Positions 33,728 to 62,360 of a stretch of 64,000 nucleotides of DNA are shown one piece after another. The stretch spans positions 147,870,001-147,934,000 of the forward strand of contig OZ024740.1 in assembly GCA_964016885.1 (NCBI GenBank), in the 5' to 3' direction. The position numbers were made by a program, and so were the translations under genes. The DNA is from Eledone cirrhosa (lineage: Eukaryota). A model generated the notes under the pieces. That model was not told the origin of the DNA. It did not search any database and saw only the letters and a list, made by a program, of their open reading frames with translations. How positions within the stretch are numbered: the stretch's first letter is position 1; the number at the start of each line of letters is the position of its first letter.

Positions 33728-33988
33728 ATCTGTAGGAGCAGGATTTGCTACAGCTGGTAAAGGTAATGGACTCTCTGGGTTAGTCAATGGAGCACTGGCT
33801 GTATGGAGAACATCACTCTGATCAGTAATATTGGTACCCTGAAGTGCCACCATATTTGGCATGGACTGTGTATTTCCTGGAACACTTGTAGATCCAGATA
33901 CTTGCTTTTCATGTAAGAAGAGCTGAATTTGCTGGTTTTGCTTCTGTTGGATATGGTATTTAGTAGGGTGTTCAAGTTGAGTCTTGAC
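33728..33988 (-). CDS. MITF: MiT/TFE exon: N-terminal conserved LENPTKYH block and SAP..SP phosphosite region
   Basis: TTTTCAG|GTC...GAT|GTAAGT, 261 nt, phase 0-0. Encodes [26 protein letters not shown]...QSMPNM...SAPLTNPESPL...PTD, compared with MITF [26 protein letters not shown]. Confidence 0.95.
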
Positions 33989-34749
33989 CTGAAAATAGTT
34001 TTAAAAAATGAAAGAATTCATAAGATACTATCAATAGATAAATATTTCAAATTTTTATATATGGATTACAGTAGAGTCAGCAATAGCACTAAGGATTTAT
34101 TTATTTAGTATATATATATTAGTATATATATATATTCATTTATATTTATACTCGTAATTTTTCCTAAAGTGCTTAAAATTATTTGTGACTAATCCCGGTC
34201 TTTTTAAAAAAAAAAACGCGATAATATTGCTATTTTGCTGAACTCCTTACATTTTGTAGAGTTTTTTTGGAATGTTTTTGACTGCTGTTTCTTGTAAACA
34301 GACATTCGTCTCATTCTGACGTCACCAGTCATGTTTCTCCATGTGTGTTTATTTTCAAAATTCCGCACGAGGTGAACTAGCCTGCTTTTAAATTCCCTTT
34401 CTGGCATATTTTGGCAGTGGGACTTTTGGTTATCGTGTTGAGCTCTACTGAGGAACGATTCCAACCATGACTAATCCCACTGAAAAGTTTCGTGAAATAG
34501 TCTTTTTAAGACTATATAGAGCATTTGTAGTTTTTCCAAATTGAAGGATGAGTATTTAAACTTTATTTTATTCTATTGGTTTTTTCCCTGGATTTCACAA
34601 AATCTGTGGATAAAATCTGTCTTGATTTTTTTTTAATTGAGTTTGAATTATTTTCCCATATCTTACGTTAATTATTTTCCATTTTGACATTATAGTCACT
34701 TATATATTATGAAATACTTCTTGCTCACATTAATTTCTCTATTTTCATT

Positions 34750-34902
<153 letters not shown>

Positions 34903-35689
34903 GGAAAGGGTAAACAGAAATGTCAAAACAAACGACACAGTACATGGAAGAAATATACTAGTTTAATGCTTGAAATAGCTGGGAGTTAATGTTTCAGACA
35001 CAGAAGATAGAGTTAAAAATAGAAGATAAATAGAAAGTAAAGAGTGATAAGAAGAAGGAATGGGAAAAATAAGGAGAAAAAACACAAGTTCAGTTAGCCA
35101 TCTTATGGGTGCAAGGGGATAGGATATACATGTACATAGAAATTATAATTCAATTAACCAAAACAATTTAAAAGCAATTTCTAAGTATCAAAGACTATTT
35201 AAAATGTTAAGCTAACAATATGATAAAATAATAGTTGGAGCATTAGAGTCTCTCAGAAACCTGTTTTGGTTTTAACACAACAAATAAAATCATAGATGAA
35301 CACAATAGAAAAAACAACATTGATTAGAACTGTCAAATCTGAAGAGTATGTCACAGTTTATAATCAAGTAATATAGTGCTGTAGTAACAAGTATGATTGG
35401 CCTGCCAATTTATATCGAAAATGTAAATAATGAATAATTCTTCACTAATAATAATAATAATTGCATGTTTTTGTTTACTCTTTTTATACCAGATAGCATA
35501 TTAAAGAGAAATATTAAGTTTTCATCAAGAATAGCTTTGATTTAGAAATATACTTTACATGTACATACACACATATATATATATAACCAATGCTAGTGTG
35601 GAAGATAGACGTTAAATGATGATGATCATATATATATGTGCGTTGTTTACTTATCACAAACAAATGTTTATCTAATGCTTACAATAATA

Positions 35690-35900
35690 ATGATTTCTAC
35701 TATAAGCACAAGCCCAGCAATTTTGGGGGAGGGTAAAGTCAATTAAATCATCCTCAGTGCATGACTGGTACTTTATTTTATCGACCCCGTAAGGATGAAA
35801 AGCAAAGCTAACCCCAGTGGGATTTGAACACAGAAATTAAAGGGCTATAACTCTAAGCTGCAAAGCATGTTGTCCGACACACTACTGATACTGTCAATAT
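35690..35900 (-). mobile_element. tRNA-derived SINE, family 1
   Basis: ACTGGTACTTTATTTTATCGACCCCGTAAGGATGAAA core followed by GGGATTTGAAC. Confidence 0.85.
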
Positions 35901-36066
35901 AATAATATTAATATATACTGCCTTATGCATAAGCCTAAAAACACAATTCTTCAACTTAATTACTGCCTTGTATGTCTACCTTGCCTCACTTGCTTTATTC
36001 ATTGCTCGCCTATATTCAATATTTGATGTTCTTGATATGTGGTTTTTGTTAAATTAAATCTCTCTT

Positions 36067-36194
36067 AATAGCCCTGATGAGATGAAGGTGTTTTGTATAT
36101 TGTATAAATAATTGTTAATTAGATATATCTGATTGATTCGTTGTCTGCATACACATGTAAGTTTATCACCTGTATAGAAACAACTGTAGATATT
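36067..36194 (+). ncRNA. Degenerate hammerhead motif in a Penelope-like terminal remnant
   Basis: AATAGCC-CTGATGA (36074-36080), AGGTG/CACCT pairing, then GAAACAACTGTA-GATATT. Stems I and III carry mismatches. Confidence 0.4.
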
Positions 36195-36508
36195 ACAGAT
36201 GGATGTAATTTGAAAATCTTAGTTCTCTTCCTTTTAAATCATCATCATCATCGTTTTCCGACCTTGGTGCCAAGCGGTTTTGGCTTGTATGTTAATAATA
36301 ATAATAATATATATATATATATAATAATAAAGTATATATCCCTACACGCAAAAAGCGTCCAGGGATACATGTATTGTCCAACCATATGCCAATGTGGTTC
36401 AATGGCAGGTTAATAAATTAATGAGCCAGAACATATATAATCAAGGTTTAGCAAATAAGAAAAAGTTTCAAAATAAATTTCAAAAAATTCACTGTAGTCA
36501 CTATGGTT

Positions 36509-36595
36509 ACCTTTACCGAATCGGTTTCGAGTCTCAAAAATAAATGGACAGTCCTTGCGGCCTTCCATTGAAAAGATAAACTCTCGTCAGAAGGT
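36509..36595 (-). ncRNA. Type-I hammerhead ribozyme motif (left arm, sense to the MITF pre-mRNA)
   Basis: Exact reverse-complement copy of 36946-37032. Predicted cleavage after position 36514 on the minus strand. Confidence 0.85.
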
Positions 36596-36779
36596 TCTTT
36601 TCACTCGGAGAATATAAAATTCCCGAGTTCAAATTACGAAATGGCGCTATTCAAAATTGTTCCCGAGATGAGAATGAATGATGTGGAAGCAATTCTGTCC
36701 AGTGCCGTGTGTAAAGATAGAAGCAGAGGCAGGGAGGTCTCCTCTTGGTCGAGATAAAATTTGGTCGTTTTGACTGCTG

Positions 36780-36788
36780 CTATTTATA
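36780..36788 (-). promoter_or_regulatory. Putative TATA box in the inverted-repeat spacer
   Basis: Minus strand reads TATAAATAG and points toward the left-arm hammerhead. Motif only, in an AT-rich genome. Confidence 0.35.
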
Positions 36789-36945
36789 GTAGTAGTAGAC
36801 TGACCTCCCTGCCTCTGCTTCTATCTTTACACACGGCACTTGAAAGAATTGCTTCCACATCATTCATTCTCATCTCGGGAACAATTTTGAATAGCGCCAG
36901 TTCGTAATTTGAACTCGGGAATTTTATATTCTCCGAGTGAAAAGA

Positions 36946-37032
36946 ACCTTCTGACGAGAGTTTATCTTTTCAATGGAAGGCCGCAAGGACTGTCCATTTA
37001 TTTTTGAGACTCGAAACCGATTCGGTAAAGGT
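36946..37032 (+). ncRNA. Type-I hammerhead ribozyme motif (right arm)
   Basis: Stem I ACCTT/AAGGT; core CTGACGA (36951-36957); stem II GAGTTT/AGACTC with an internal AATGGA..CC-GCAA-GG..TCCATT hairpin; GAAA (37013-37016); stem III ACCG-ATT-CGGT; GUA cleavage triplet ending at 37027. Confidence 0.85.
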
Positions 37033-37419
37033 AACCATAGTGAGTACAGTGAATTTTTTGAAATTTATTTTGAAACTTTTTCTTATTTGCTAAACCTTGA
37101 TTATATATATATATATATATATAGTGTCAAGATTTTCCATAGACTAGATAAAGGAAACGTTGAGCATATTATTAAAATCAAATTTTTAACACACCAACAT
37201 ACTCACTAAGGTTTCAAACCCTACTCAATCATGGGTGTTAGTGTAACCTATGTTTGAGACAACTCCAAGATAACAGTAGAAAATATACAGTCTCTCAGAC
37301 CTATGCTAGAGTAAGTAGGTTTTGAAATCTTAGGTAGCATGCAGCTGTGTTGATAATTTATTTATAATAATATATATATATTATCATCATTATCATTTAA
37401 TGTCCATTTAATGTATGGG

Positions 37420-37610
37420 GAGTGGATTGGCAGTATCGGTAGAAGGTCGGACGCCATGCTTTGACGCATAGAGTTACGGCCCTTATCATTCTGAGTTCAA
37501 ATCCCGCCGAGGTTAACTTTACCTTTCATCCTTACGGGGTCGATAAAATAAAGTACCAGTAATGTACTGGGTATTTGCTGGCCTTGTGCCAAAAGTAGAA
37601 ACAATTATCA
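37420..37610 (+). mobile_element. tRNA-derived SINE, family 1
   Basis: A box TGGCAGTATCGG, B box GAGTTCAAATCC, core CCTTTCATCCTTACGGGGTCGATAAAATAAAGTACCAG. Confidence 0.9.
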
Positions 37611-38589
37611 TTTAATGTCCATTTTATATATATATACAGACACACACATAGAAATAAATATTTTAATATTTGTGAGTTTTTATGTGTCCATGTGCCATTA
37701 CGTACATATTACAACAAATGAAATCAAATACATAAAATAGAAATATTTTGAACAGTCAGTTTATTTATTACCCAACAATGAAAAAATGAGTGCTATAGAA
37801 GTCAGGGTAATAGTGGGGAGTATATTCTAGAACATACTGAGAGAAACAGATGAGTTGATATCTAAATTTAAAAAAAATAACACGTTAAAGGAAAAACACT
37901 TTTGAAGTCAGCTGATTTACCCTTGAACAATATAAGTGGCAATAAAAATTTATCATATAAAAATATTTTGAATGAAACTAGTAATTAAAGAGCCCTTTAA
38001 TGATTCAGTATTATAATCGTCATGCCTTAAAAGTGCAAATGTTACTTTGTGAGCATGTATGTGCTTAACATTTTCCCATAATCATTGAGGTAACAAAATA
38101 TTCAATAGGTAACAAAATTTGTGAGATTGAGATACTAGGTTACCCACACAAAAGCTAATAAATGCAAATATTCTTGCATCCACAGAGCTAAGCCAGTATT
38201 AAAAAATCCACATTACATGCTAAACTATTTTCCCTAACCTTATTTCCTAGAACGGCATCAACAAAATATCTCAACCTTGCTTCACAGAAAAGCAATCACA
38301 TAAAACTTACTCTTATTTACCAAAACTTACATCAAGAATAACATGGAAACACTATGGATACTGTTATTCATCAACAGACTGAACAATAATGGGGAAAAAA
38401 TGACAATAAATAAATAGGTTCTAATCCCAATTGATAGTTAAATAGTAAGGAGAGCAAAGGTTAACCTGGTCTGAAAATGCATACTCTAAAACATTATTTT
38501 TAAATATACAAATTTACAAATTCACACATATGCTTATATTGGCAAATGGGTAGTTATACAAATATACAATTATTGTTTCATTATATGTC

Positions 38590-38775
38590 GGTGGATTGGC
38601 AGTATCGGTAGAGGGTCGGACGCCATGCTTTCCAGCATAGTTACGTCCCTTTACGGTCTGAGTTCAAATCCCGTTGAGGTTGACTTTGCCTTTCATCCTT
38701 ACGGGGTCGATAAAATAAAGTACCAGTAATGTACTGAGTAATTGCTGGCCTTGTGCCAAAAGTAGAAACAACTAT
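38590..38775 (+). mobile_element. tRNA-derived SINE, family 1
   Basis: Same A/B boxes and core. Abuts the RTE remnant. Confidence 0.9.
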
Positions 38776-40625
38776 TAGGTGGTTAGGGGAGAAGCTAGGC
38801 AACAAGTGTACTTTGCAAGAAGGGAAGCAGAAGATAAAAAACTTAAGCATGTTCTGCAACACAAGGACCAAAGACCTGATGTGTTCAGGATTGTGAGACA
38901 ATGTGTCAAGGAAAATTGTGATATTGTTGGGGAGAAGTGTGTCCATGATGATAATGGAGTACTTGCCCTCACTGATACTGATAAGTAGGTAGCATGGAAG
39001 TGCGACTGTGAAAGACTACTAAATGAGGAGAATGAATGGGATGAAGATAGTTTGCCACAAGTTGACCCAACAGAGAGACCAGCTGTGCAAGTTAATAGTA
39101 GTAGTAAGGCAATCAAAGATATTAAGACAAGTAAGGGAGCTGGACCTTTAGGGATAGATGCTGAGATATTGAAAGCGTCTGGAACGGTGGGACACACGAT
39201 AGTGACCCATATAGTAAACCAAGTGATACAAAATGACTGGCGTAGCAGCATCATCGTCAACTGCTACAACGGCAAAGGTGTCCTAGACAGAGAAAACTAT
39301 AGAGGCATCAAGTTGATGGACCAGGTCATGGAGGTAAAAGATAGTTATACCACAAGTGATTAGGGAACGGGTTAACCTAGATGAAGTTCAGATTTGTGAC
39401 ATGCAAATGTACCACTGATGCCCTCTTCCTTGTGAACCAACTACAGGAGAAGAAAGTAAACCCGTCTACCTGGCCTTTGTTGATCTGGAGAAAGCTAGTG
39501 ACAGAGTCCCCCATGTCATAATCTGGTGGGCTCTAAGAGAACTAGGAGTAGATGAGTGGCTTGTGAAGGCTGTACAATCCATGAATAGATGAACAGTTAG
39601 CAAAGTTAGGATTAACAATGACAATAGTGAAGAATTTAGTGTGTAGGTAGGTATCTACCGGAGCTCTGTTCTTAGCACTCTCCTGTTTATTACTGTTGTG
39701 GCGGATATAACAGAGGAGTTTAAGACTGGCTGCCCATGGGAACTCCTATATGCAAATGATCTAACACTTATAACTGAATCCAAATCTAGAAGCATGGCAC
39801 AAAATCAAAGGATCTGAAAGTCCACTTGGCAAAGAATAAGGTCCTAGTAAGTAGAAGGGAAAACAAGGCCCTGATCCCCTCAGGGAAATTGCCTTACTCA
39901 GTGTGCAGGAAAGACTATGGGTACACAAGAAATGTAGTGGGACCGCATGTTGGTTACCTAAGAATTTAGGCTTTACATGTGGCCGTTGCAAAGGAGCAGT
40001 AAGCAGCAAACGGTCACAGGAAAAAAGCTTTACCAACTTCTTGGAGGATTCTATAGAAGCAGTAGACAGCTTCTGCTACCAGGGTGACCAAATCAACAGT
40101 GGAGGTGGGTGTTCCAAAAGTACAGTAGTAAGGGTAAGAACATGATGGAAAAGTTTAAGAGCTACAACTACTGCTAGCTACTTAAGGTTTTTCACTCAAA
40201 ACAAAGGTCAAATTGTATAATGCAAGTATACAAACAATGTTGGATGGTAACGAGACCTGGGTACTGTGAACAGAGGACCTGTGGAGATTGGAAAGAAATG
40301 AAGCTTGCATGCTTCAATGGATGTGCAATAGTAATATAAATGAATGGCAACGCATAAGTGAACTGAGAGAGAAACTGGGTATAAAAGGGATCAGATGCAG
40401 TTTGCAGGAGAGTAGATTGCATTGGTATGGGCATGTGAAGGATGACAGCTATATATAAAGATGACAGAACATTAAAAGTTGATGGAAGCTATGGAGTAGG
40501 AAGACCTAGGAAGACTTGGGATGAGGTGATTAAAGCTGACTTTGTACAATTGTACCTCTCAAAACACAGGACCGAGATTTTTAGTGTTATGCAGCAATAC
40601 AGAAGACATGCCTTCCCCAGTGCAC
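38776..40625 (+). mobile_element. RTE-clade LINE remnant (frameshifted RT with an internal Cys/His motif)
   Basis: Fragments KGAGPLGIDAEILK, NYRGIKLMD, LAFVDLEKA.DRVP, ELLYAND, WVHKKCSG..FTCGRC, VDSFCYQGD, RLHWYGHV and GRPRKTW, with many stops and frameshifts. Confidence 0.9.
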
Positions 40626-40628
40626 CAG

Positions 40629-41914
40629 TTAAAGCATACATCGATTTAAGGCTTTTAACATATCGGGCCTGATTTCATCTCCAACAGGCTTGCCACATTG
40701 AAGCTCTCTAACTGCTCTTGTGACCTCAGCTTCTGAGAGATTAGTTACTGTTCCCAGATGCACCTCGTGTACATCAGAAGATGCTGTTGTGATCTGGTTT
40801 AGGAGATCAGCAAAGTATTCTCTCCACCTCATGATGATACACTTTCTGAAGAAGAGAACCGCAGACACGTTCTTGATAGCAGGTGTGGAGGAGGACTTCT
40901 TATGACGTCAGCTGGTCTGGCAGAACACTTTATTTGCTGATCTGAAGTCAGATTCCAGCTTAACCCCAAAGTCCTCCCATAATCTTAATTTTGGATACCT
41001 TTACTGTCTCTGCTGCGATTCTTCGTGCCTGTTTGTACCACAAGTGCAAGAAGGAGGATTTATTTCCAAGCCAAGCTTTGTAAGCCTCCTTCTTTGCTCG
41101 GATGGCATCTTTGACCTCTTGATTGAACCAAGGGGTCCTCCTGCCATCCGGCACCACACCAAGCCTCATTCACCCACAACATTTAACAAATATTCACACT
41201 GTGGCAGGTATTCAAGAAATCGTGGGAGTATTGAAAGAAGTATATTCTGGTTTTGTTGACCTTGAAAAGGCATATGACTGCATTCGGGACATACTGTGTA
41301 AGGTTCTGCAGGAGTGTGGGATTGTTGGTCAGCGTTTGTTTCTATAGAAATGCCCAAGTATTTGTGTTTGGATAAATGGTGCTAAATCGAAACCATTCAA
41401 TGTGGGAGCCAGACTCCACTAAGCGTGTACTGACGCCTCTCCAGTTCATTATTTACATGAACAGGATTGACATGCACAGCAGGGTTGGAAATGGTATCAT
41501 GACTGGCGAGTGTAAAATCAGTCGGCTGGAATTTGCAGATGACATGGTGTTACTTAACTCAACAGAAGGTGATCCCTGACTGGCACTTGATAGGTTTGAT
41601 GTTGAGTGCTACATGGCTGGAATGAAAATCAGTGCTGCGAAAACTGAGATACTCATCTCAAAGAAGCTTGCGTAGTGCACTCTGCATGTGAATGAAGTTC
41701 CACTGAAGGAGGTAGAAAAGTTCAAGTATCTTAGAGCTGTGTTCACGAGTGATGGGTGACTCTGAGCCAACCCTCTGTGAAACGTGCCAGTACTCAATAA
41801 AAAAACTAACAGCATGTAAACGAATCTTTGTTGTTTTTCTTAATATATACACTCTGCCTGTACATCAAGTGCTCAGTTTGGTACCACCGACAGTAATTCT
41901 TTGAATTACATACA

Positions 41915-41971
<57 letters not shown>

Positions 41972-42392
41972 CATATGTATATAAGGAGGAGGTAGATATT
42001 CCATATGGTGTACACAATATGCTGAGAGACTGTGAAGTCTAAGAAGAAATGGAGCAAACACGCTCCACTAGATATGTTAGGTTAGTGTACATGAATGACA
42101 AAGCACAAATGAGCTGAAAGATAATTGGATGTAAGAGAAATCAGATGTACTGAGCAAGAGAGAAGACTGCATTGGTATGAGCTGGTAGGGGTATGTGAAG
42201 TGTATGGAAGATGGCATCTGCATCAACAAGTATGTGTTTGTCGCTATGGCTTAGCTTCATATTTGAAACTACTATTTAAGGATCAAGTGGAGTTGGCATC
42301 AGAAAGAAGATCAGGGAACAGAATATAGCCCCCAAAACCTCTCATCCAACCCATACTAACATGGAAAGGGGATGTAAAAACAACAATGATGA
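40629..42392. mobile_element. Second RTE-like LINE remnant with an inverted 5' part
   Basis: Minus strand 40629-41160: TPWFNQEVKDAIRAKK, EAEVTRAVREL..GK..DEIRPDMLKAL. Plus strand from about 41190: FVDLEKAYD, LEFADDMVL, VEKFKYL, RRLHWY, then an RTE-type tail. Confidence 0.8.
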
Positions 42393-42477
42393 GACTAATT
42401 ACATGCCTTGAGCACTTTTTCTCTCATTTCTACATGTAAGTCATATAAGTGCATGCATATATAATATATATATATAT

Positions 42478-42557
<80 letters not shown>

Positions 42558-42825
42558 CAGAGAGAGATACTTTATGAGATAGAAAAGAACATTTTTTTCA
42601 GACACATTAATACACACATTCATATATGAAACAATCTCCTACATGTATGATATTGTGTAACAAACACCTACACATTTGGATTATTATTTATGAGCTTCAT
42701 ACCTTTTATAATCTAAATGTAATGTAATATATCCAAACGAATGACACAAAATAAAAACATTTCTAAAGCAAATTGCTTTTATAAATTCACTTCATTAATT
42801 GTAATAATCAAATTGTAATAATCAA

Positions 42826-42946
42826 TGATCTGAGTTCAAATCCCGCCGAGGTTGACTTTGCCTTTCATCCTTACAGGGTCGATAAAATAAAGTACCAGTA
42901 ATGCACTGGATAATTGCTGGCCTTGTGGCTAAAGTAGAAACAATTA
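42826..42946 (+). mobile_element. 5'-truncated SINE, family 1
   Basis: B box to tail only, flanked by AATTGTAATAATCAA direct repeats (target-site-duplication-like). Confidence 0.85.
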
Positions 42947-43289
42947 ATTGTAATAATCAAAATTATTAGCATCTATATTCATGTTTACATTTATAACATA
43001 TTTACATATACTAATTGTTGACACAGATGTTGATAATTTAACAGTATAAAAAAAACTGCATACATCCTTACATATATACAAATACACACACGCACAAACT
43101 ATATATATATTGATTTCTACTTATTTCTAGAGTTTCATGTATTCAGTCCCTCAGATGGGAAAAATACTGAATTTAGCCTTTTCCTGTCTGAGGAGCTACA
43201 ACATAGATAAAGTGCTGTATGTGTCTCTTTAACTCTGTTGGATTGCACATGTGGGACATTTCTCATCACTCTTACCAGGTCTGCTATCA

Positions 43290-43850
43290 AGATATTGAGC
43301 TTAGTAATATCTGTGATAGCTTAGTTCTGATGGTTTGGGATAATGTGAATGGAGGATTTGGGCTTTATCGTTCCTAGTTTCCATCCAGAGTTCTGTGTCT
43401 AACATGAGTAATCTATGGTTGAGGTGCTTAGTGGGGTGGTCTACAGTTACTTTAATGCTCTGGTGGATGGAGCTAACTATTTGCTGAATGCTCTCCATGG
43501 TGCTAGCATCTAGTTCCGATTCATGGGTACTCTCTCATGGGGTATTTTAAACCACTATATTGATATCATCAACATAGCGAGAGTACATGGCTATGGTTAT
43601 GGAATTCTCAACTAAGCATTCCTTGTCACCATGAACAGAATGGTTACATCAACAGCAATGCTGATGCCAATGATAGCTTCCTGTTCTTAGTGTATATTTT
43701 ATTATTGAACTCAAACACATGGCCATTTAGGGTAGTTTTAATATTCACACCCACTGCATATGCAATCATTCTTTGACGTGCTTTTTGGAGGTCTGTATGG
43801 CACTGATCTATCTGCTCCATCTTCCCATTGGGGTCTTTTTGAGCAGTGAG
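43290..43850 (-). mobile_element. Penelope-like element reverse-transcriptase remnant
   Basis: Minus strand MYSRYVDDINI (about 43558-43590), followed by SIHQSIKVTVDHP...LMLDTELW...ILHSHYPKP, typical of the PLE RT palm/thumb. Confidence 0.75.
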
Positions 43851-44854
43851 GTGATGGTCTACTGGGGCAGAAAAAGCTTTCTATTGGTAATATTGGCAAC
43901 GTGACCATCCCCAAATATAACTATATTGGTTTCAACACACAATTTCACATCAAGAATTTTTCAGAACAAATACATAAACATATATATATATATATGCTTA
44001 ACTCTCCTCTTGTAAATCCATTTTATTCCAGTCAGTAATGAGAATGTATCAATGTTGAACTGACAAATAGCTAACTGGTTTAAACAAAAGACATTCCATT
44101 GAACTGGAAAAAACAACAGAAAACTATCTGGTGCATTATTTTCATGAAATAAAGAGCAACTCTTTTGGTATTTTTTAGTGACACACAGTTAGTGGATACA
44201 TGTAGCTTGCAATGCCAAAGATAGCAGCTTCTCCAATATCTTGATGATATAAATTACTATATATTTTCCCTTCTAGCATTGAGTCTCTCCAGAGAGTGTA
44301 GCATTTGCATAGGGATGATCTTCTTTGTGTAGAAACAGGGCTGGATTAATTCGTTTTGTGGACTAAGCATTTAAAAGATTATGGTGTACCCCATATATAA
44401 AGTCTGCAAATGAATTTTCTTTTTGTAATGACAAATGCATTTTAATAGAATGGTGCCCCTTTTCCTTTGATGCCCCAAGCATATTATTTTGCATACTATG
44501 AGGAAACCAAAATTAAGACTAACAATGTGTCTATGAGAGGAGTAACATAATTTCATATTCTCAGACTCCGTCGTGCTAGTCATCTGCACACAGTTAACAA
44601 TTTAGTGATATGAGCATGAAATCATCCATTATTACCTATGATTTCTAGCGCAAATTTTGATTGACTCTCACATATTATACATACACATCAATTCTAAGCA
44701 AATTGCAAGCATCCCTCTGTACATATAGTGATGTAATATTATAATCTACAAGATTATTGGGTAGTTACCCCGCTTCCCCTTTGTTTTTGACTGGGACACT
44801 TCACAAAATATGACAATTTTTTGTAAAGTAACGATTTTTTCCTTTAAAGTTGTT

Positions 44855-45040
44855 TTGCACCTGACAAGAGAAGCCAGTTTCAGAATAGCTTCTCCACTAT
44901 ACAGTGGTGGCCATAACTGTACCACAAAACCTAAGGCTGTGCATACATGTTAAGTGTATGCAATTTAATATAAACTAAATAATCTCTCTAGTATTAGATT
45001 GAGCATTGTTTTCCTTGGCATTTTATCTACAGATAACCTG
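44855..45040. mobile_element. Partial copy of the same fold-back MITE as 648-934
   Basis: Shares CTATACAGTGGTGGCCATAACTG...TAATATAAACTAAATAA...TAGATTGAG...ACCTG with 795-934. Confidence 0.65.
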
Positions 45041-45181
45041 CACACACACACACACACACACGTGTGTGTGTGTGTATATATACACACACGTCTAACCCAT
45101 GTTAACGTGGAAGAATGGACGTAAAATGGTGATGATGATGATGATGGCACACATATATACATATATATACATATACAACAC

Positions 45182-45507
45182 ATGGATGTGTTGAGAGAGA
45201 AGCCGTGTCTGAGAGGCATACATTTTAGTGTGCGGGAGAGGAGACTGCGATGGTATGGACATGTGATGCACATGGAGGATGACCGATGGGTGAAGAAGTG
45301 CCAAGAAATGCCAGTTGAAGGAAGACGTAGTAGAGGAAGACCACGAAAAACATGGGCGGAGGTGGTGAGAGCAGACCTCAGATCGCTGAAGCTCACGGTG
45401 GAGATGACGAAGGACCGTGACAAGTGGAGAGATGCTGTGCTGAATAAGACCCGTCCCACCCTTGCAAGCAGGGAAAAGCGGACGTAAAATGATGATGATG
45501 ATGATGA
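45182..45507 (+). mobile_element. Young 5'-truncated RTE LINE 3' end
   Basis: Open frame [35 protein letters not shown]...DRDKWR, followed by a (GAT)n tail. Confidence 0.9.
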
Positions 45508-46184
45508 TATATATATATACACACATATATATACATATATATATATATATACATACATAAATACATAAATATATACATACATATATACATAAATATATAC
45601 ATACATATATACATAAATATATACATACATATATACATAGATAAATACATATATACATAGATAAATACATATATACATAAATACATATATATATATATTT
45701 ACATAAATACATATATATACATATATATGCATACATATATACACATATATACATATATATGCATACATATATACACATATATATATATATGCATACATAT
45801 ATACACATATATGCATACATATATACACATATATGCATACATATATACAGGTATATGCATACATATATACACGTATATGCATACATATATACACGTATAT
45901 GCATACATATATACACATATATACATATATATGCATACATATATACACGTATATGCATACATATATACACGTATATGCATACATATATACATGTATATGC
46001 ATACATATATACACGTATATGCATACATATATACACATATATGCATACATATATACACATATATGCATACATATATACACGTATATGCATACATATATAC
46101 ACATATATGCATACATATATACACGTATATGCATACATATATACACGTATATGCATATATACATACACGTATATGCATATATAC

Positions 46185-46216
<32 letters not shown>

Positions 46217-46456
46217 TCATATATAAGTCCAGAATTAGCCGTCGAAACGGCTTGAGCTCAGCTGTCGGGGTCTTACTGGTTCCTATTCATATATATATAT
46301 ATATATATTCATACATATCTATATATATATACATATATATTATACATATATATATATTCATATATATATATATATATTCATACATATCTATATATATATA
46401 CATATATATTATACATATATATATATTCATATATATATATATATTCATATATATAT

Positions 46457-46488
<32 letters not shown>

Positions 46489-46490
46489 TC
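45508..46490. repeat. (TA)-derived micro/minisatellite, including about 20 copies of a 22-bp unit
   Basis: ATATGCATACATATATACAC(G/A)T repeated at about 45725-46180. It is the source of the long YICM ORFs. Confidence 0.92.
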
Positions 46491-46790
46491 ATATCATCAT
46501 CATCATCATCATCAACGTTTAACGTCCGTGTTCCACGCTTGCATGGGTTTGGACGGGGGTAGTCCCACTTGAGGCAAGAGTGATTGTCTTGCTCGCATAG
46601 GACTGTCTGGCAGGTTTTCTACAGTTGGATGCCCTTCCTAACACCAACCACATTTACATATATATATATACATATATATACATATATATACATATATATA
46701 CATACATATCTATATATATATATATACATATCTATATATATATACATATCTATATATATATACATATCTATATATATTATACAATATATT

Positions 46791-47131
46791 CATTCATTCA
46801 TTCATTTCATTTTACGTCCACATTTCCCTGCTTGCAAGGGTGGGACGGGAACTGATTCTGGCTTGATTTCTACAGCTGGATGCCCTTCCTAACACCAACC
46901 TCATTACAGTGAGTGCTGGGTGCTTTTTGCCGTGGCACCTCCACGACCACTCTGCAGTGGAATGATAAGGACCCCAGTCCCTATCATCTCATTTCTACAG
47001 CTGAGTAAACTGGAGCAATGTGAAATAAAGTGTCTTGCTCAAGGAAACAACACATCACCCGGTCTGACAATTGAACTCACAACCTTTCGATTGCAAGGCC
47101 AATGCTCTAACCACTAAGCCATGTGCCTCCA
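46791..47131 (-). mobile_element. CORE-like SINE, family 2
   Basis: Near-identical reverse complement of 30886-31220; the spurious ORFs 30901-31140 and 46920-47117 are almost the same. Confidence 0.9.
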
Positions 47132-47840
47132 TCATATATATATATACATATATATATACACATACACATATATATACATGTATATAAACATATACACATA
47201 TATACACGTATATATACATATATATATACACACACACACGCACAAATACACATATGAGCATATGCATAGATATAGCTGTTTTTGTTTTTTTAATGTACAC
47301 ACATCCTTTTAAATATCTAAGTGAACTTTGAATTCACAAAGATAAGTTCTTGATCTAATAACCAGCAATAATAAAAAAAAAAAAATTTATTTCAAAATTG
47401 ATGGCTTTTAATAAACATTACAGAGACTATATATTAAAAGTCCATTGTTTTTGTAGAGATAAAGAAAATATTCAGAGAGTGGTAATATAATTTTGACCAA
47501 AATTTCGATTGACATTTATTTAAGTGCAATGAAAACTCCCATAAAGGATAATTGTTTTGACTGATTATTTTGATCTAGTTCTTACAACTATTTCAATTTT
47601 GTTATGATAGCCAAACATATAACCAACCCATCTAAAGGGAATGGTTTTGTTTATTTTTAGCAGTGTTTTAGCTATTCTTAAACAATCAGGGTGCAGTAAC
47701 TGTATTGATGTAGAATTGAAATGGCTAAGCATTTAAGTTATTGAGCCAAAGGCATGTGAGTTGAGTTCATATATCATTTAGGAATTTTCTCTCTCTCTCT
47801 CTCTCCCTCACCATCTTCGTGTTATATGAGATAGAGAATT

Positions 47841-47955
47841 TATATATATATATATATATACACATTGTATGGCAAACAGCTTTTTTTTTTAGATATATAG
47901 TGATATATATATATATATATCACTATATGTCTAAAAAAAGCTGTTTGCCATACAA

Positions 47956-47985
<30 letters not shown>
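47841..47985. repeat. Palindrome centred on (TA)n
   Basis: CACATTGTATGGCAAACAGCTTTT..AGATATATAGTGATA / TATCACTATATGTCTAAAAAAAGCTGTTTGCCATACAATGTG. A third copy of the arm lies at 48516-48558. Confidence 0.9.
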
Positions 47986-48016
<31 letters not shown>

Positions 48017-48979
48017 GTTTATATATATATATATATATATATATAAATCAGGATTGAATCAGTTTGAAACTGGTTAGACCATTACTCAATAGAGTACTCG
48101 ATACTTGAGGTAGTAGAGTATTATATATATATTAGGCTGTCAATTGACAAAATCAGTAGAACATTTGATGTATTCGTTCTGACTCTCTGCAATCTAAGTT
48201 CAAACCCAAACACCGTCAATTTTGCCTCTCATCTTTTCAGATTTGATAAATAAAGTACCAATCCAATTCTCAGTTGATTCTTCTTTTATATATCTTTCAG
48301 ATATTTCAAATTATGGTGATAATTAGCTACAATAATCAAACTAGCCTTGCATACTATAAGGTCATAGTAACATGACCCAATATCATTCCAATCAGAAGAT
48401 GAGACTATCAATGTCTAGAAACGTGGTGAATTTGGGAACTATACTGTTCCAAACAAACTGCAGAGAATTCATATGAAAAAATCTTGATAAAAATGAAATT
48501 AGAGCATAGTCATGTTATCACTATATGTCTAAAGAAAAAGCTGTTTGCCATACAATGTAAGATTGTAGTACATATTTTCGAGTGAGTATCTTGCATTCAG
48601 AGATCACTTGTACCACCATCTCTTCTCTTTCACCAAATATTGTACATACTTATAGAATGTGTGGTACATAAGGATGGTGTCATTATCTATATTCTTTCAG
48701 ATATATTTCATTCTTATAGCATGATCCTTCATGGCTATGATTAAGCCCTCTGCTTGTATGTATCTCTCTCTCTTTCTCTCTTCAGACTTCTCTCCTTTAG
48801 TCGTTAGAATGATGTTCTTCAGTATTTGGGAAAAAAATTTACATATAAGCTTTTCTGTTCATATTTTTGCTTACTAGTTTTAAAGGCTTCACTTTTTTCC
48901 TTTCCATCACTAAGTATTACACCTCACTGTACTAGTATCAAGAGCACCTCTTCACTATATGCATCATTATTATTAGGTG

Positions 48980-49265
48980 GACTTTGCTTTTCATCCTTAC
49001 GGGGTCGATAAAATAAAGTACCAGTAATGTACTGGGTAATTGCTGACCTTGTGTCTAAAGTAGAAACAATTATTATTAGGTGGATTGGCAGTATCGGTAG
49101 AGGGTCGGACCCATGCTTTGACACATAGAGTTACAGCCCTTGCCATTCTGAGTTCAAATCCCGCCAAGGTTAACTTTGCCTTTCATCCTTACGGGGTTGA
49201 TAAAATAAAGTACCAGTAATGCACTGGGTAATTGCTGGCCTTGTGCCAAAAGTAGAAACAATTAT
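48980..49265 (+). mobile_element. Tandem SINE family 1 copies (truncated then full)
   Basis: Core plus tail at 48980-49075, then a full copy at 49078-49262. Confidence 0.88.
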
Positions 49266-49289
49266 TACTATGGTTCATTTTTGTAAATC

Positions 49290-49935
49290 TCAGACAGATC
49301 TTAAATAATATGGATATTTCAGTTAAACAAGACTTTCCTTAAAATCTTTGCTGTGTTAAGAAGTGCTGTCTTCTGCATGACCTGTAACCTTGCATCAATT
49401 CTGATTCTATTTACACAGTCTGAGAAATTGTCCGATATGCAACCCAATGCTCCAATCATCACTGGAATAACTAAAATCTTCTTCCTCCCTCACAACTTTC
49501 TAACCTCCTCCTTCAGTACCTCATACTTCTCCATCTTTTCATGCTCTTTATCCTTCACTCTACAATCTACTGTGACAGATATATCGATAATTTGGGCATC
49601 TTTTTTCTTCTTGTTTACAACTAAAATGTCTGGCCTTCTTGTCACAATTATTCTATTGCATTAAATGGTGAAGTCCCACAAAAGCTTAATTTCGTCATTC
49701 TCTAATACCCCATCTGGTCTTTATTCATACCATTCAGTTGCTCTAGCAAACCCACATTTCTCAGATATCAACCAATGGATATATCTGGCAACATTATCAT
49801 GTCGTCTTTTGTACTCTCACTATGCCAACGTAACACATTCGCTTACAATATGGCTGACTATTCCTTCTTTTGTTCCACACATTCTACATAATGGCAATTT
49901 TATCATTTTGTCTACATGGTGTTTTATTCATAATG
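49290..49935 (-). mobile_element. R4/Dong-like LINE 3' end (zinc knuckle plus restriction-like endonuclease)
   Basis: CRMC.....SHIVSEC, RHDNVARYIHW, KLLWDFTI, RRPDILVV..AQIIDISV, IGALG and QKTALLNTAKILRKV. Bounded by (TAA)n. Confidence 0.8.
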
Positions 49936-49994
49936 ATTTTATCGTAATGTCAACATTACTATTATTATTATTCCCATTATTATTTTATTGCGCA

Positions 49995-50290
49995 TCATTA
50001 CTGCTTACTGAGTACAGCCCTGTGCCTCTTGGGTATGAGCAGTGTAGTTTTTGCTGATGTTGTTTCTATTGTATTGATAGTACTTTTCAGAATATGTGTG
50101 CAGTGCCTAGTAGTGCTATATTTTGTATGCTGCATAATTTGTAAATCCTGGGGTTTTGGCAATGTATTTGTCTGTGTGTTTTTTATCATTCCTATTACTA
50201 TAGGTATTGTTTCTGTTTTCCTTTTCCATATTCGAGTTATTTTTATCTCTAGATGTTTATATTTGGAGAGTTTCTCTATTTCCTTGGAAG
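49995..50290 (-). mobile_element. Second R4/Dong-like 3' fragment
   Basis: TIPIVIGMIK...LGTAHI..KVL terminal motif, between (TAA)n tracts. Confidence 0.6.
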
Positions 50291-50309
50291 ATATATTGTT
50301 ATTATTATT

Positions 50310-50512
50310 AGTATCAGTAGAGAGTCGGACACCATGCTTTGCAGCATAGAGCTACAGTCCTTTACAATTTGAGTCCAAATCCTGCCGAGGTTAACTTTGC
50401 CTTTCATCCTTACGGAGTCGATAAAATAAAGCACCAGTAACATTTAATCGACTTTCTCCTCCTCCCAAATTACTGGCCTGGTGCCTATAGTATAATTCAT
50501 TATTATTATTAT
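50310..50512 (+). mobile_element. SINE family 1 copy
   Basis: GTATCAGTAGAGAGTCGGAC...GCCTTTCATCCTTACGGAGTCGATAAAAT, with an (ATT)n tail. Confidence 0.85.
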
Positions 50513-50829
50513 TAGGGAGAATTCATGGATGCTATTAGCAAAAATGTAGCACAAATGATTTCCAAAGACCTAGTTTTAAAAAAAAAAGCTACATATTTGA
50601 GCTCATTCTTAAATACAGAATACCTCTATTCAGCAAGATCAACTGAGTGGTTTGTATTCAATTTCTTCCTTATTCATGGGCTTATTTAAGAAAATGAATT
50701 GACTTAAGAGAGCCCAAGCTGCAATGAAGAGTCTCTTCTTTTAGCTCCTGATCCCTCTGCATAAGTACATCAAAACTAAAGTTTGTTATATAAAAGCTAA
50801 ATTAACAAAGATTATTTTTTAGCCTCAGG

Positions 50830-51510
50830 TAATCAATTCATAGTGTCTAGTAATCCAAAGGCTCTTAGTTCCTCCATTGAAAATACTGACATGTATTTTC
50901 TAAGCTTCAATGACACCAAACTACATTACTGTGGAATATCTACTTCAACACGTTTACCTCTACAGCCTCCTGCCTTCCATCACACAGCCCCAAGATACTG
51001 GAATTCCTCCACCTGTTTCAGTGGATCTCCACTGCACAGGCTTCCTTGAGAGGATGAGTGGCTCAGTCTTCACAACACTAATTTTCATTTGGCAGCAAAC
51101 TTATGGAGTCATGTCAGAGATCACCTTCTGGTGAGTTAGAATATTCCATGTCATCTGTAAATTTCAGCCAATTGATCCTACACCCACCAGTCTCCATACT
51201 ACTTCCAACTCAGCTGCACATGTCAATCCTGTCTATGAAGATATGAACAGGAGTCTGAAAACCACATTGAATGATTTTGACTTAGCACCAAACACAAATA
51301 GTAGGGCATTTGTATAGAGATATCAGCGCAACAAGAAGTTTTCAATCAATTCCCTACTCCTGCCGAACCTTAAACAACAGGTCCTGTGGAACATGATCAT
51401 ATGCCTTTTTGAAGTCTACAAAACAAGCATACGCCTCTTAGCAATTCTCTCATGATTTCTTAAAGATCTGGGCCAGCATGAATGTTTGGTTGGCAATAAT
51501 GTGTCCATAG
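50830..51510 (-). mobile_element. RTE-like RT remnant
   Basis: Minus strand ACFVDFKKAYD (about 51400-51430) and LKFTDDM (about 51147-51168). Confidence 0.75.
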
Positions 51511-51897
51511 CATTGCAAGACAATAAGGGAACCTCTATGCAATCGTTTGAACAGCTAGAATACATTATGATTGAAAAATATGAAATGGTGATGACTGCAA
51601 TAACAACAATAAAGTTTAACCACATGCTTAATTAAAACATATCAATATCTAATGTTATTTCACATAAGCACACTAAGAAAGAAGCTCTATTATAAAGATA
51701 CAATTTTCCCCATAATTCTAATAATTAAAAACAAATCAAAGCCACCTTCTTTACCAAATAATTAAACAAATAAACTCTCACAAATTTCTAAAACCTAATC
51801 AATAAGCAATCTGAAGTTTAGATGCAGAGAATGTGTTGCAGCACATGGCAAGCCAGATGAGAGAATTAACCCCTCAAATGAAATGTGTATGCATGCG

Positions 51898-51943
<46 letters not shown>

Positions 51944-53082
51944 TTCATGTTTGTTTATGTGTGTGTGTATGTTTGTATGTGTATCATTAGTACTTTTTCT
52001 GCCATCACCCACTATTTATTAAAGAAACAATACTACTAATGCTTGTTTTTTTTAGTATTATTCCTTTAACCTTTAAGATCATGCAATGATTTAGCAGAAA
52101 ATATCTAAAAACGGGTTTGTTAATTCAAATGTTTATAATATCGTTATTAATGGACAGATTATTGTGAAAATTTGCAGTGTTAAAGTAAAAACATAAGGTT
52201 TTAATGTGATTCAGTCATAATGCTGTTGGGTAGTTTTCAAGAAGTTTTTGCTAATGCTGTTACATGTGGTACAGGACTTTAAGAGTTAATATATAATGGG
52301 AGATTTCAAAAAAAATACACAGCCAGAAAAAATGTTTTTGGGTATCCAGTTACATCCCTTTATATCCCGAGTTCAGATTTTACTAGAACTAACTTGGTCT
52401 TTTATCTTTCCGAGATCTATAAGTAATACAAATTTCATCAACTATACCCTCTCCATAAAATATATGATCTATGGAAAACTCATATTTTTAACATAAAAAA
52501 TTTTATTTGCTTCATTATTAATGTCCATTATATAATTATACATGCATATACATATGGATATTACTAGCATAATTATGAACCCATATTGTCCTTGATATAC
52601 AGATATTTACTTAGTTGGTCCACCTATGTATGCATATATTTTATACACCACGCTGGATTAGTAAGGATAAACTCCACTTACTAACAGGTGAATATTATTT
52701 TTTAAAAATACTTTCTAAGAAACTCTCTATTGCTTGTCTTAATTTATTAAGAAGTTCAATATTGTTTCTTGATTCTAGAAACTGCAGTCGGGGAACAGAT
52801 GTAAGTGAAGCTTGTATTAGTTAGCTTTACTAGTACTCTACCCGTCAGTGACTTTGCATAAGTTATTCTATATTTATATGCTTCTCCGATTTAAATACAT
52901 TTTAGCTATCTTTTCATTGAGATGTTCAGTATGTTGGTGACAAACTTCTGTGAGATATATATATATGTGTGAATATATATATATATATAACGATATAAAG
53001 ATATTAGTGTTGCTATTGTTATATATTGGGCTCTACACATGAACGTTTACAAATAAACATTATTGTGATGTATACACACACA

Positions 53083-53113
<31 letters not shown>

Positions 53114-55877
53114 AGCTGATCTTTCAGACTTTTACAAAGCGCTAAGAAGATGAGGTTAATATAAAGAATGATTGCTCATGTGCAAGATGCTATAAAAAAG
53201 CTTATAAAATAGGGTGAAATCCCTTAAAGACTGAAGTTTCAATACTTTAGTTAATTAATCCATGATGTGACCAGATGTACTTATATACAAATGTTCAAAA
53301 GCAGTGCCTCTTATTGCTCATATGTATTTATGCATTACTCTCTCTTTCTTTCTCTCTCTCTCTGTATGTGTGTGTGGTCTACATCCAAAAGTCATTTGCC
53401 ACTCATCTGTCTGATGGTCCAAGTGTACATCTTCACAACATTATTATTATTAGTCAGTTGTGAGATAGTAGAGGTATTCCATTCATGACAATTGTTTCTT
53501 TAGTTTAACAAGAAAATCTCCAGTTGAATCAAATGCATTACTCTAAACTATGGAACATGCATCTTATTCAAGTGTTGTTTCCTATTAATACTCTTTATGC
53601 ATGCATGCATCTATGTGTGTGTATGTGTGTGTGTGTATGTAATGATGTATGCATGTAAACACACGTGTATGTTTCTTTGTGTGGTTGTATATAAATATAT
53701 GCATTATCAAACATTATCATCATCTTGATTTAATATCTGTTTCTTCCAAAATAAACATGTAATGGCTAAATATAGAACAACAGATCTCACAGCACTTTAA
53801 ATTACAGTAAAAAGATATATATGATGAAAAAATGTAACATTACAATTTAATTTAGATTAAAAACAAAATTTATTTAGGAAACTGTTTCACCTAAAATTTT
53901 GTTTTTTATTTATTTGATCTTAGTTATATATTTGTTTGAATGTGTTAAGCATTGTGATGACATTGTGTCTGAATTTAGCTTATTTTACAGTCTTTTTAAC
54001 CCATTCCTTACCATATTTCTTATGAAATCCACTATATTTCAACTAATTTATGAAGAATTTGGATGGATTTACTCAACATTAATTATTTTATCATTAAAAT
54101 GGTATCTGTAGCATAAAAAAATTATGCTGGCAGATTTTAATTTAGATAGGAAGATTTTAAAATGGGTGGGCTAATATCATAGAAGCAGAGGCAGTTTTGG
54201 CCAGGTTGGCTTCAATATAGCTTAATTTTTTTTTTCAAACATTTCAGAAATCTGTTGCTTTATTAGGTTTCCCTATGGATCTCCACTAGATATGAATACA
54301 AGTAAATAAATGACTCCTGGATCATATGCAACACATTGAAAGTCAATGCTTAGCTTCTATTTTATAGTATGAAACAGAGGGGAGGTACATCTCTCTCTAG
54401 AATGGTTGCCAGTCCATCACAAGTAATAATATACTTCAATGATTTGATACATATTCTAGAAAATCTAGGTAAACTGAGGCAGTATAGCACTAAGAAACAC
54501 AATAAGAATTAAGAGTATTATAACAAACCTTCTGATTAGCATGCTTGTGTTTGAAACAGCTTGACAAAAGTTCTTACATAAAATCATGTTGGAAGTTTTT
54601 TTAGATAAATATAAACACTTTAAAACACACAGCAATATATAGGGGCAGTTTCAAGCAGTTTGATATCAAAAGGGTTAATGCCTTATCTACTTGACCATCT
54701 GACATATAAAATCTCACCTATCTTCTTGAAAAGAGGACACTTTGAATAATGTAACCAGATATATATGGTACCAAGGAGAATGATAGGATGAATGGATAAA
54801 ATGCTTTTCCAAATATTCAAAGAAGAAAATTCTTAAGATATAAATATGTATCTCTTACACCTACTGAGATTTGATGCTAATTCTTAACATCCAGCATTTA
54901 TTTAGTAGAAAATATCTAAAACTTGATTTATTAATTCAAATGTTTATACCATCTTTACTAGTAGACTTGTGATTTTGAACATTTCCAGTAAACTAAAGAC
55001 TTGAATTTTTAATGTGATGCTGTCATAGTTCTGTTTTGTACTTTTCAAGAATGTATTGCTAATGAGATACATGGCATTAAAAGTGAAATTAAACTGAAAC
55101 AGTTCTTAAAGACCAGAGAAATTTGGAAACTAACAAGTTTATTTCCATGTAAATTGTCCATTAAAGATAATAATTCATATAAATTATTCTTATATTTCCT
55201 ATTCAGTGTTTCTATACTTTTGGTAATGTTTATTTGAAAAATCTATAATTAATCAAGATTTTGCTTATATGGTAACATAACAAATCTGGGTCCCATTTTG
55301 TCTAGATCATATACAATGTACTGCTAATTCCATAAAATAACTAGTTTATGTGTGTTACTATCCCACTATGCATTTTCTGAAAACTTCAAAATAACAAATA
55401 AAGAAATTTTATAGAATTATATCCACTATTCAATTATACTAATATTCTTTTAAATTCAACCTTATTCAATTACTTCTTCTAAAACAGTTTAAACCCATAC
55501 ATGCTTTAGAAATAGACATGTTCTCTGGGTGGAACATTTGGAATTTTACTCTGAAGTTTAAAGGTACTTCAAAATTAAGAGAAAATTTACCAGTATTCTG
55601 AGTTCTATATAAAGTAACTAAGAATGTAATGATTGACAGCATCTATTATTTCTGTATTCTAACTAACTGTGATACATGAGGTATGATTATTTAGATTTTA
55701 AATAAAACTTAAGTAAACCAAAGAAAATCATTAATCTACGTATTATACACATTAATGAAAAAAAGCGTAATAAAATCAACAACACCAAGTTGATGTCAAT
55801 ATATTTTCATGAAAATATTCAAGACAAAAAATGCAAAAAAAGAGAAACAAATCATAAGAAAATACAAGAACACCTAC

Positions 55878-56031
55878 GAAAGGCTCAGTGGTCCAAGTTG
55901 CATATTGGCAACTAGGATAGCAGGCATATTGGTTAGAATCACATGAGTAAGGCCAGTTGTGGTGGCACCCTGGTTGGTTATAGTAGTAGTTGTAACCATA
56001 GTCATGAGTACTATGGTTCACCATCATACCA
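55878..56031 (-). CDS. Candidate alternative first or cassette exon of the MITF-like gene (Tyr/Cys/His/Asn-rich peptide)
   Basis: GC-richer island with a pyrimidine tract and AAG acceptor at 56032, ATGATG at 56027 and a phase-0 donor TTC|GTAGGT at 55877, in frame with exon 33728-33988. Encodes MMVNHSTHDYGYNYYYNQPGCHHNWPYSCDSNQYACYPSCQYATWTTEPF. No homology recognised. Confidence 0.45.
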
Positions 56032-56633
56032 CTTGAGGGAAGAGTGTGAGGGTAAGAAATGGTAAAATATAATATCCTCTTGTAGAAAATGGTAACAAAT
56101 TATATCCTTATGCTTATTTATCACATATATTTTGAGTATCTAGTTCAGGAAGACGTAGAGGCAATGTATAAATTTGAGTATATACAAAAGGAATTAAAAC
56201 AAACTTTTAAGTAAATGTTTAAGTTCCAATCTTAAAATTGATTTGTTGCTACTTTTTTTGTGCTCCTGTTGTTTAGATTATTTTCTTTGCTTTTTATTTT
56301 GGTAATCAGTGTTTTAATGGGGACAGATATTTATCCCATAAAATTTCCTGGTATTGAAAGACTGATGTTCATAAAATAAAGTGTTCTTTCAAAAGAGAAT
56401 ACAACAACAGTTTGTGTAAACAACTTGTAGCGTTCATTTTGGAAACTTCCAGAAAATGGAAGATTACCATTGGATGTAATGAATCTTTCCATGAGCTTTT
56501 TTTCATCCAGATATTTATGTGTCAAATCACGAACTGGTCATTTTGTAATTAGTTGTAATTCCAAATATTTTTTTAAATCCCTAAAGTCTTCATTGGTGGT
56601 TTGGGACAAAATACTATACATCCACATGCATAT

Positions 56634-56669
<36 letters not shown>

Positions 56670-56897
56670 CACTAAACCTTTAACAAATGATCAAAATTTA
56701 GAAGTCCTTAAATAAAACGTGTTTCTAGTGCAATTTATGTAGTGTGTGTATTATAACTACAGTATAGTTCTCTTTTTGTTGTTCTGGAAACTACTGTTGT
56801 TAAGTTATTGTTCTCCTAGTTATTTACACAAGCTAGTCTCATTTTATTCTGACTCAAAGTTTTTTGTTATCGTTCTTTTCATTTATATATTTATTTA

Positions 56898-56934
<37 letters not shown>

Positions 56935-61360: not shown

Positions 61361-61552
61361 GGCGGTGGATTGGCAGTATCGGTAGAGGGTCGGACGCCAT
61401 GCTTTCCAGCATAGTTACGTCCCTTTACGATCTGAGTTCAAATCCTGCCGAGGTTGACTTTGCCTTTCATCCTTACGGGGTCGATAAAATAAAGTACCAG
61501 TAATGAACTGGGTATTTGCTGGCCTTGTGCCTAAAGTAGAAACAATTATTAT
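61361..61552 (+). mobile_element. tRNA-derived SINE, family 1 (reference full-length copy)
   Basis: GGCGGTGGATTGGCAGTATCGGTAG...GAGTTCAAATCC...GCCTTTCATCCTTACGGGGTCGATAAAATAAAGTACCAG...(ATT)n, flanked by ATTATTATTATTGGAAAATA direct repeats. Older copies lie near 5620-5730, 6280-6600, 48150-48270, 57513-57720, 58480-58625, 60015-60180 and 61060-61240. Confidence 0.92.
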
Positions 61553-61812
61553 TATTGGAAAATAGTTAACTAAGATTAAGTTGAACAGAGAAATAAGCAA
61601 AATCAGCAAATGTAATCTGTTGTAGTTTTGTTTTATTAGCTATGATATATAATTTATTAGCTATGCTCTATGATTTATTAGCTATGCTATAAGTAATATC
61701 AAACAGAGATTGTAATCTAGAGAAATTCAGACATACAAACCCAAATAAAAACACAACACACAATCCAATAATTTGATACGTATATGTGCATAAGAGAAAG
61801 AAAGAGAAGGGA

Positions 61813-61847
<35 letters not shown>

Positions 61848-62324: not shown

Positions 62325-62360
<36 letters not shown>

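Follow-up and report, generated by a model that had tools for sequence, protein, structure and literature searches.

Why does an intron of a Mitf gene in Eledone cirrhosa carry a near-perfect palindrome with one hammerhead ribozyme motif on each strand, and does this arrangement do anything for its host? The palindrome is the longest inverted repeat of the window (the whole stretch of DNA that was analysed, 64,000 nucleotides), and the initial annotation, made from the letters alone, saw in it a ribozyme switch kept locked by its own duplex. Our analysis makes it highly probable that the element is a head-to-head pair of retrozymes belonging to a ~485-nt hammerhead repeat, likely put in at a TA run by a Penelope-like enzyme, and that it is probably a neutral passenger. 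The features discussed are collected in Table 1.

Table 1. Features of the palindromic element and its surroundings (positions of the window)
Feature	Positions	Strand	Remarks
Mitf exon downstream of the element	33731..33988	-	PF15951 model 61-135; 3' boundary approximate
Mitf intron, part in the window	33989..64000	-	continues to window-equivalent 72999
TAA/TA run, left end	36293..36322		likely target microsatellite; element boundary approximate
Tail, 117 nt	36316..36432	-	family sequence following the arm; continuous with the arm in tandem copies; on the left arm only
Left arm, 5'-truncated inverted copy (unit 63-369)	36433..36739	-	sense in Mitf pre-mRNA
Type I hammerhead motif	36509..36595	-	predicted cleavage after 36514; core intact
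Loop, 62 nt, unit 1-62 of the direct copy	36740..36801	+	comparison with family copies
Right arm, direct copy (unit 63-369)	36802..37108	+	ends at the first fixed 3' end of the family
Type I hammerhead motif	36946..37032	+	5-bp stem I, CUGACGA, 55-nt stem II, GAAA, 4-bp near-palindromic stem III, GUA; predicted cleavage after 37027
(TA)n run, right end	37102..37123		likely target microsatellite
Copies of the ~190-nt repeat	23587-23773, 35750-35899, 37422-37610, 38589-38777, 42761-42949, 48887-49267, 61363-61552	both	repeat comparison

The two arms, 307 nt each and 99% complementary, stand 62 nt apart and are mismatched at four positions (36841/36700, 36844/36697, 36900/36641, and 37044/36497), so that repeat search and alignment bear out the two 307-bp arms with about four mismatches that had first been noticed. 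The element as a whole reaches 117 nt further to the left than that description allowed, from ~36316 to 37108, and is bounded by TA runs. Likewise, what had been called a spacer belongs to the direct copy, of which it forms the 5' part. The element is made up of a direct copy (body 1-369) and an inverted copy (body 63-369 followed by the tail), with the inversion junction at 36739/36740. Both ends run into TA repeats, within which a target-site duplication is not readable.

Each arm presents, in this order, ACCUU, CUGACGA, stem II, GAAA, stem III, GUA, and AAGGU, which gives one complete type I motif per strand with the expected core (CUGANGA, GAAA, and UH round three helices, open at helix I). 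A hammerhead descriptor run on the window returned these two motifs only, while 20 shuffled windows gave one hit. Folding and an Rfam search were among the checks proposed in the initial annotation. The unconstrained minimum-energy fold of the 87-nt plus-strand motif is indeed the hammerhead (-20.6 kcal/mol), with a 5-bp stem I, a 6-bp proximal stem II, a distal hairpin, and a 4-bp stem III; motif and predicted fold together uphold a complete type I hammerhead in each arm, and the cut positions proposed for the two strands agree with the motif prediction. The Rfam search of the window returned no family at gathering score and no hammerhead family among the 12 weak matches at E<=10, probably due to the long stem II (55 nt), and the ribozyme call therefore rests on motif and fold. 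The miRNA matches that Rfam gave in the window were rejected as effects of the hairpin.

In the alignment of 24 distinct copies 96% of the hammerhead cells are paired, and the distal stem II shows one U-A to C-G change common to 8 of the 24, which counts as one event; that the 3' half does not vary carries no weight, as the search pattern had fixed it. For the near-palindromic stem III, pairing between two molecules is computed at -14.3 versus -2.0 within one. The larger segment 36935-37045 folds into a non-hammerhead structure (z -0.8). We also noticed that GAAAAGA just upstream of stem I (36939-36946, plus strand) is complementary to UCUUUUC in the stem II internal loop (36964-36971); pairing of the two may represent a tertiary contact or else a fold that competes with the hammerhead.

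The motif resembles the Penelope-like hammerheads described in PMC4209133 in being of type I, with a short helix I, a long helix II, G10.1-C11.1, and a small palindromic helix III. It departs from them in having no unpaired base before helix II, a much longer helix II, and a helix III of 4 bp with a 3-nt loop, which is predicted to make a monomer fold possible.

The location within a MITF intron was confirmed by homology. Minus-strand exons at ~73000-73227 (window-equivalent) and immediately downstream of the intron (Table 1) match consecutive parts of the PF15951 model, 1-61 and 61-135, respectively, so the element lies inside an intron of 39,011 nt (33989-72999), 2,327 nt from its 3' splice site. 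Two further exons of the host gene match HLH. By these matches the host is a MiT/TFE-family gene on the minus strand, and the label Mitf is used here for family membership only. On the left arm, which is sense to Mitf, AG/GTAACC, a sequence like a 5' splice site, is seen 3 nt past the cut site (36510, minus strand), and the tail contains a pyrimidine-rich, acceptor-like AG (~36345, minus strand) that lies outside the hairpin; an intron of the element itself or cryptic splice sites are both possible. The ~190-nt short repeat is very abundant and occurs in both orientations in the Mitf introns, where it could add double-stranded RNA, and the window also contains a 210-nt inverted pair (30885-31094 and 46924-47133). 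Other frames in these introns, at 8773-9384 (plus strand), 38779-41576, and 49322-49660 (minus strand), are what we take to be decayed transposase-like and LINE reverse-transcriptase-like sequences.

The element belongs to a dispersed family. Searching the genome with one arm gave 2450 first-look candidates, 40 of which were scored, and the best 41 places for the arm query are 98-100% identical to it. An exact 29-nt pattern from the 3' half of the ribozyme has 534 matches genome-wide (0 for the reversed control), which is a lower bound on copy number. When the fetched loci were mapped, the repeating unit was found to be ~485 nt, consisting of the 369-nt body (loop and arm) and the 117-nt tail, which leads back into the body in tandems; no coding ORF occurs in the unit in the copies examined.

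Layout was sampled in 100 of the 534 matches, the first ones along contig 1 (to 402.7 Mb), which fall into 82 loci, each conditioned on one exact motif match. Opposite-strand pairs in these loci are divergent in nine cases and convergent in none, and same-strand spacing is 471-487 nt in eight of nine cases. Family sequence is present on both strands at 31 of the 82 loci, a whole hammerhead on each strand at 11 (with both cores intact at 8), and two complete motifs on one strand, by the strict pattern, at 4; tandem arrays are short, with up to about 3 units seen. The 3' ends were examined in 108 loci, that is, the same 82 and 26 picked for a full-length arm. Here 150 of 167 tract 3' ends fall at two fixed points 117 nt apart, 102 at unit 360-369 (the end of the body) and 48 at 478-486 (the end of the tail). 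Among the 45 head-to-head pairs, the tail occurs on just one arm in 40 cases (on both in 0, on neither in 1, unclear in 4), as it is in the Mitf intron. Truncation at the 5' side is common, the copies being 5'-truncated partial tandems, often joined head-to-head at junction points that vary from locus to locus. The 5' ends show no clear excess at the ribozyme cut site (8/111, p=0.03 against 20-350; 8/67, p=0.11 against 200-350).

The family combines the features of two known classes. With non-LTR retrozymes it shares short tandem units that are non-coding, dispersed in many copies, and each equipped with one type I hammerhead; with Penelope-like insertions it shares partial tandems with an adjacent inverted, 5'-truncated copy, a tail at one end, and two fixed 3' ends. 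This supports the Penelope-like or retrozyme identity that had been suggested for the locus. From the 5' truncation, the fixed 3' ends, and one copy with A-to-G hypermutation on the sense strand, described below, we infer that the family is mobile through RNA.

Could the palindrome be an assembly fold-back artefact, or a snap-back duplication of DNA in the cell? Among the 24 of 84 pieces listed for read runs X1-X3, no contig spans the junction, which leaves some room for this reading. However, the two arms carry different family-wide variants, which argues against a fold-back in assembler or cell alike: the right arm reads T and A at body positions 102 and 105, as do 24 of 112 copies, where the left arm reads G and C, as do 80 of 112. 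The arms differ from each other at 4 of 296 positions and from copies elsewhere at 3-6. The one-armed tail and the differing junction points speak in the same direction. In addition, in X1 (a run that may be the source sample), subtraction leaves depths of about 8 (36497), 8 (36641), and 5 (36791) for the rare letters of this copy, similar to the 6-7 of the unique flanks. We consider an artefact very improbable, the question being settled by sequence arguments and not by reads.

Arm differences of this kind are usual in the family. Over 153 loci, the mean difference at polymorphic sites is 0.14 between inverted partners, 0.10 between tandem neighbours, and 0.37 between random pairs, and at least one polymorphic site separates the partners in 26 of 32 inverted and 36 of 42 tandem pairs (some loci give several pairs). 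Such differences are consistent with templates that were either related RNAs or unlike units within a single multimeric RNA. Since tandem units within a locus usually differ, a linear multimer fits better than repeated copying of one circle. The palindromic copy is ~1.0-1.7% from its nearest relatives, and is therefore young.

Non-coding tandem units with type I hammerheads are known as non-LTR retrozymes, with units of 170-400 nt according to Cervera and de la Pena (2020, PMC7229834) and of 51-972 bp according to Li, Clavereau and Pollet (2026, 10.64898/2026.07.22.740005), who argue that retrozymes derive from Penelope-like elements; the metazoan ones are proposed in both sources as non-autonomous Penelope-like derivatives. 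Like these, the present family is poor in GC, has a non-coding unit a few hundred bases long with a single type I hammerhead, and occurs in tandem as well as dispersed copies. It is unlike them in its short arrays and long stem II, and its 485-nt unit is above the 2020 range but within that of 2026. The main texts of the two papers leave the inverted layout undiscussed, the word "inverted" occurring 0 times in PMC7229834 and once, in a reference, in 10.64898/2026.07.22.740005.

That layout is described for Penelope-like elements. In the Naiad clade, according to Craig et al. (2021, PMC8557442), insertions lie in (TA)n targets and are 5'-truncated, with partial tandems and an inverted copy next to them; their tail of 30-40 bp is often confined to one end. 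Arkhipova et al. (2013, PMC3846280) report an inverted pseudo-LTR, with just one of the two carrying the tail, and head-to-head as the usual layout, and Frangieh et al. (2024, PMC11167929) report cleavage and extension on both strands with two start sites bounding the tail. Dual hammerhead motifs ~100-700 bp apart on opposite strands were reported in 2014 (Cervera and De la Pena 2014, PMC4209133), and the two motifs here, also on opposite strands, are 503 bp apart. As far as these accounts go, the family shares with EN-bearing Penelope-like insertions the 5' truncation, partial tandems, head-to-head inverted copy, one-end tail, two start sites, and AT-rich or (TA)n targets, and differs from them in that the copies examined hold no reverse transcriptase or GIY-YIG coding and the tail is 117 nt versus the published 30-40. 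The geometry is a common by-product of insertion, both within the family and in PMC8557442, PMC3846280, and PMC4209133. What is new is the family member, while its layout was already known; a literature search for octopus and hammerhead ribozyme returned no title describing this ~485-nt family.

No reading frame for a reverse transcriptase or GIY-YIG endonuclease, as an autonomous EN+ element would carry, was found in or attached to the copies examined. A comparison of 108 loci revealed no shared coding flank at single-strand copies, no partner was found in 32 further loci chosen for unusual unit junctions (two exclusion patterns), and six nearby Penelope-like ends have no real similarity to the family. 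The Penelope-like ORFs nearby belong to other families. Beside ten of the sampled copies (L016, L040, L070, L074, L104, L107, L062, L139, L010, and L063) there are several other Penelope-like families, often in the same TA runs, with GIY-YIG domains preceded by an upstream cysteine motif and with reverse-transcriptase fragments. At least five other hammerhead types also lie beside these copies, often again in the same TA runs, as counted with a descriptor that left out the ~485-nt family on purpose.

We propose that an autonomous Penelope-like element would supply the enzyme and nick both strands at (TA)n. Each of the two fixed start sites would prime one cDNA, the template being either a multimeric RNA whose units are not alike or a pair of related RNAs, and the two 5'-truncated cDNAs would then be joined 5' to 5'. 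That the palindrome is long at this locus would simply mean that each cDNA was extended through most of a unit.

The layout is predicted to matter for the RNA that carries it. As first pointed out, the antisense arm is made before the ribozyme arm in either read-through. The minus-strand read-through folds at -582 kcal/mol, with the hammerhead helices at probabilities of 1e-94 to 1e-17, and the proposed masking of the ribozyme by the 307-bp duplex is thus borne out as a prediction. In the Mitf pre-mRNA the arms would pair as the second one is made, the ribozyme would not fold, and the hairpin, which may be an ADAR substrate, would leave with the intron. This masking follows from geometry alone, and any head-to-head pair has it. 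The single arm, in its own context and without the antisense arm, is also predicted to misfold, with a stem I probability of about 0.001.

From the masking, the initial annotation went on to a protective and regulatory switch, in which the ribozyme is held locked by the duplex until ADAR editing, helicases, or a transcription start in the loop allow regulated cleavage of the Mitf pre-mRNA. The geometry allows this, the core of the sense ribozyme is intact, and family RNA can likely be hyper-edited, but the models make unlocking look unpromising. Editing was simulated by turning 33% or 60% of adenosines into G or a non-pairing letter, a crude model that considers equilibrium only. Stem I formed in 0 of 48 folds of the edited hairpin, 63-100% of the ribozyme was still paired to the other arm, and all five core adenosines were spared in 27% (33% editing) or 3.5% (60% editing) of 5000 draws, which speaks against unmasking by hyper-editing. 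A minus-strand transcript that starts in the loop is predicted to have stem I with a probability of 0.0004, which likewise speaks against unmasking by a start there. The copy is young with no sign of conservation, and the twin layout is frequent in the family. Taken with the layout being an ordinary by-product of insertion, in the family as in the literature, these results leave the switch extremely improbable, more so even than an artefact.

One family copy suggests what editing may do in practice. L134:1051-1940 (G000:C21, about 33,108,865-33,109,754) is a copy of 1.9 units, and 87 of its 121 differences from a close relative, L184, are A-to-G on the sense strand. The changed sites avoid a 5' G neighbour (5/87 versus 49/141, p=1.4e-7), an avoidance that is typical of ADAR. 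About two thirds of the changes are shared by its two units, and it is the only A-to-G hypermutated copy among the 131 loci screened, with a best match elsewhere that is 87% identical. Judged from this pattern of changes, L134 is likely a hyper-edited RNA that was copied into DNA, and the family RNA likely meets ADAR; such a copy points to an RNA intermediate. Both GAAA boxes of L134 are changed, so the editing outcome that is seen is a damaged ribozyme. Among the titles returned by a literature search for edited retroelement copies in genomic DNA there was none, which is not proof of absence.

The same Mitf intron holds a second, unrelated Penelope-like palindrome, also head-to-head, at L115:6029-6617 (window-equivalent 70029-70617). 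Its arms of ~291 nt, 283 of them identical, are 6 nt apart; it includes a C-terminal piece of a GIY-YIG domain, resembling the same part of the full domains present at other loci, and outside the outer end of each arm there is a minimal hammerhead. Run over 124 kb of the gene, the descriptor found four hammerheads, all of them twins in the two palindromes. The presence of a second, unrelated twin palindrome in the intron indicates that the layout is generic.

It could also reflect selection, if head-to-head copies persisted in introns more than unmasked sense copies by hiding their own ribozyme. All four hammerheads over the gene being twins, versus 11 of 82 loci in this family and 2 of the 8 seen in the second, would fit such a filter, as would the predicted masking and the depletion of retrozymes in Xenopus introns reported in 10.64898/2026.07.22.740005. 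However, just one of these palindromes was found independently of the original observation, and with twins at 2 of 8 loci of the second family a single independent twin is unremarkable. Misfolding is in any case predicted for the single arm, and metazoan Penelope-like hammerheads are reported to be of low activity (PMC4209133) or, in the case described in PMC11167929, to cleave only with protein. According to work cited in PMC2995048, splicing in mammalian cells still took place when introns were cut by a slow hammerhead, which lessens the need for protection. We therefore find a filter of this kind unlikely. Similarly doubtful is the wider proposal that head-to-head insertion is a built-in silencer, such that the introns of active genes keep palindromes and lose unmasked sense copies, with this Mitf intron as an example and its hairpin heavily edited.

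Were the filter to hold genome-wide, it would explain how animals tolerate hundreds of intronic self-cleaving motifs. For the head-to-head retrozyme insertion that we favour, the different variants in the two arms point to two halves that come from different RNA units. The family as a whole supports the published proposal that Penelope-like enzymes move retrozymes, as its non-coding copies carry the full signature of Penelope-like insertion.
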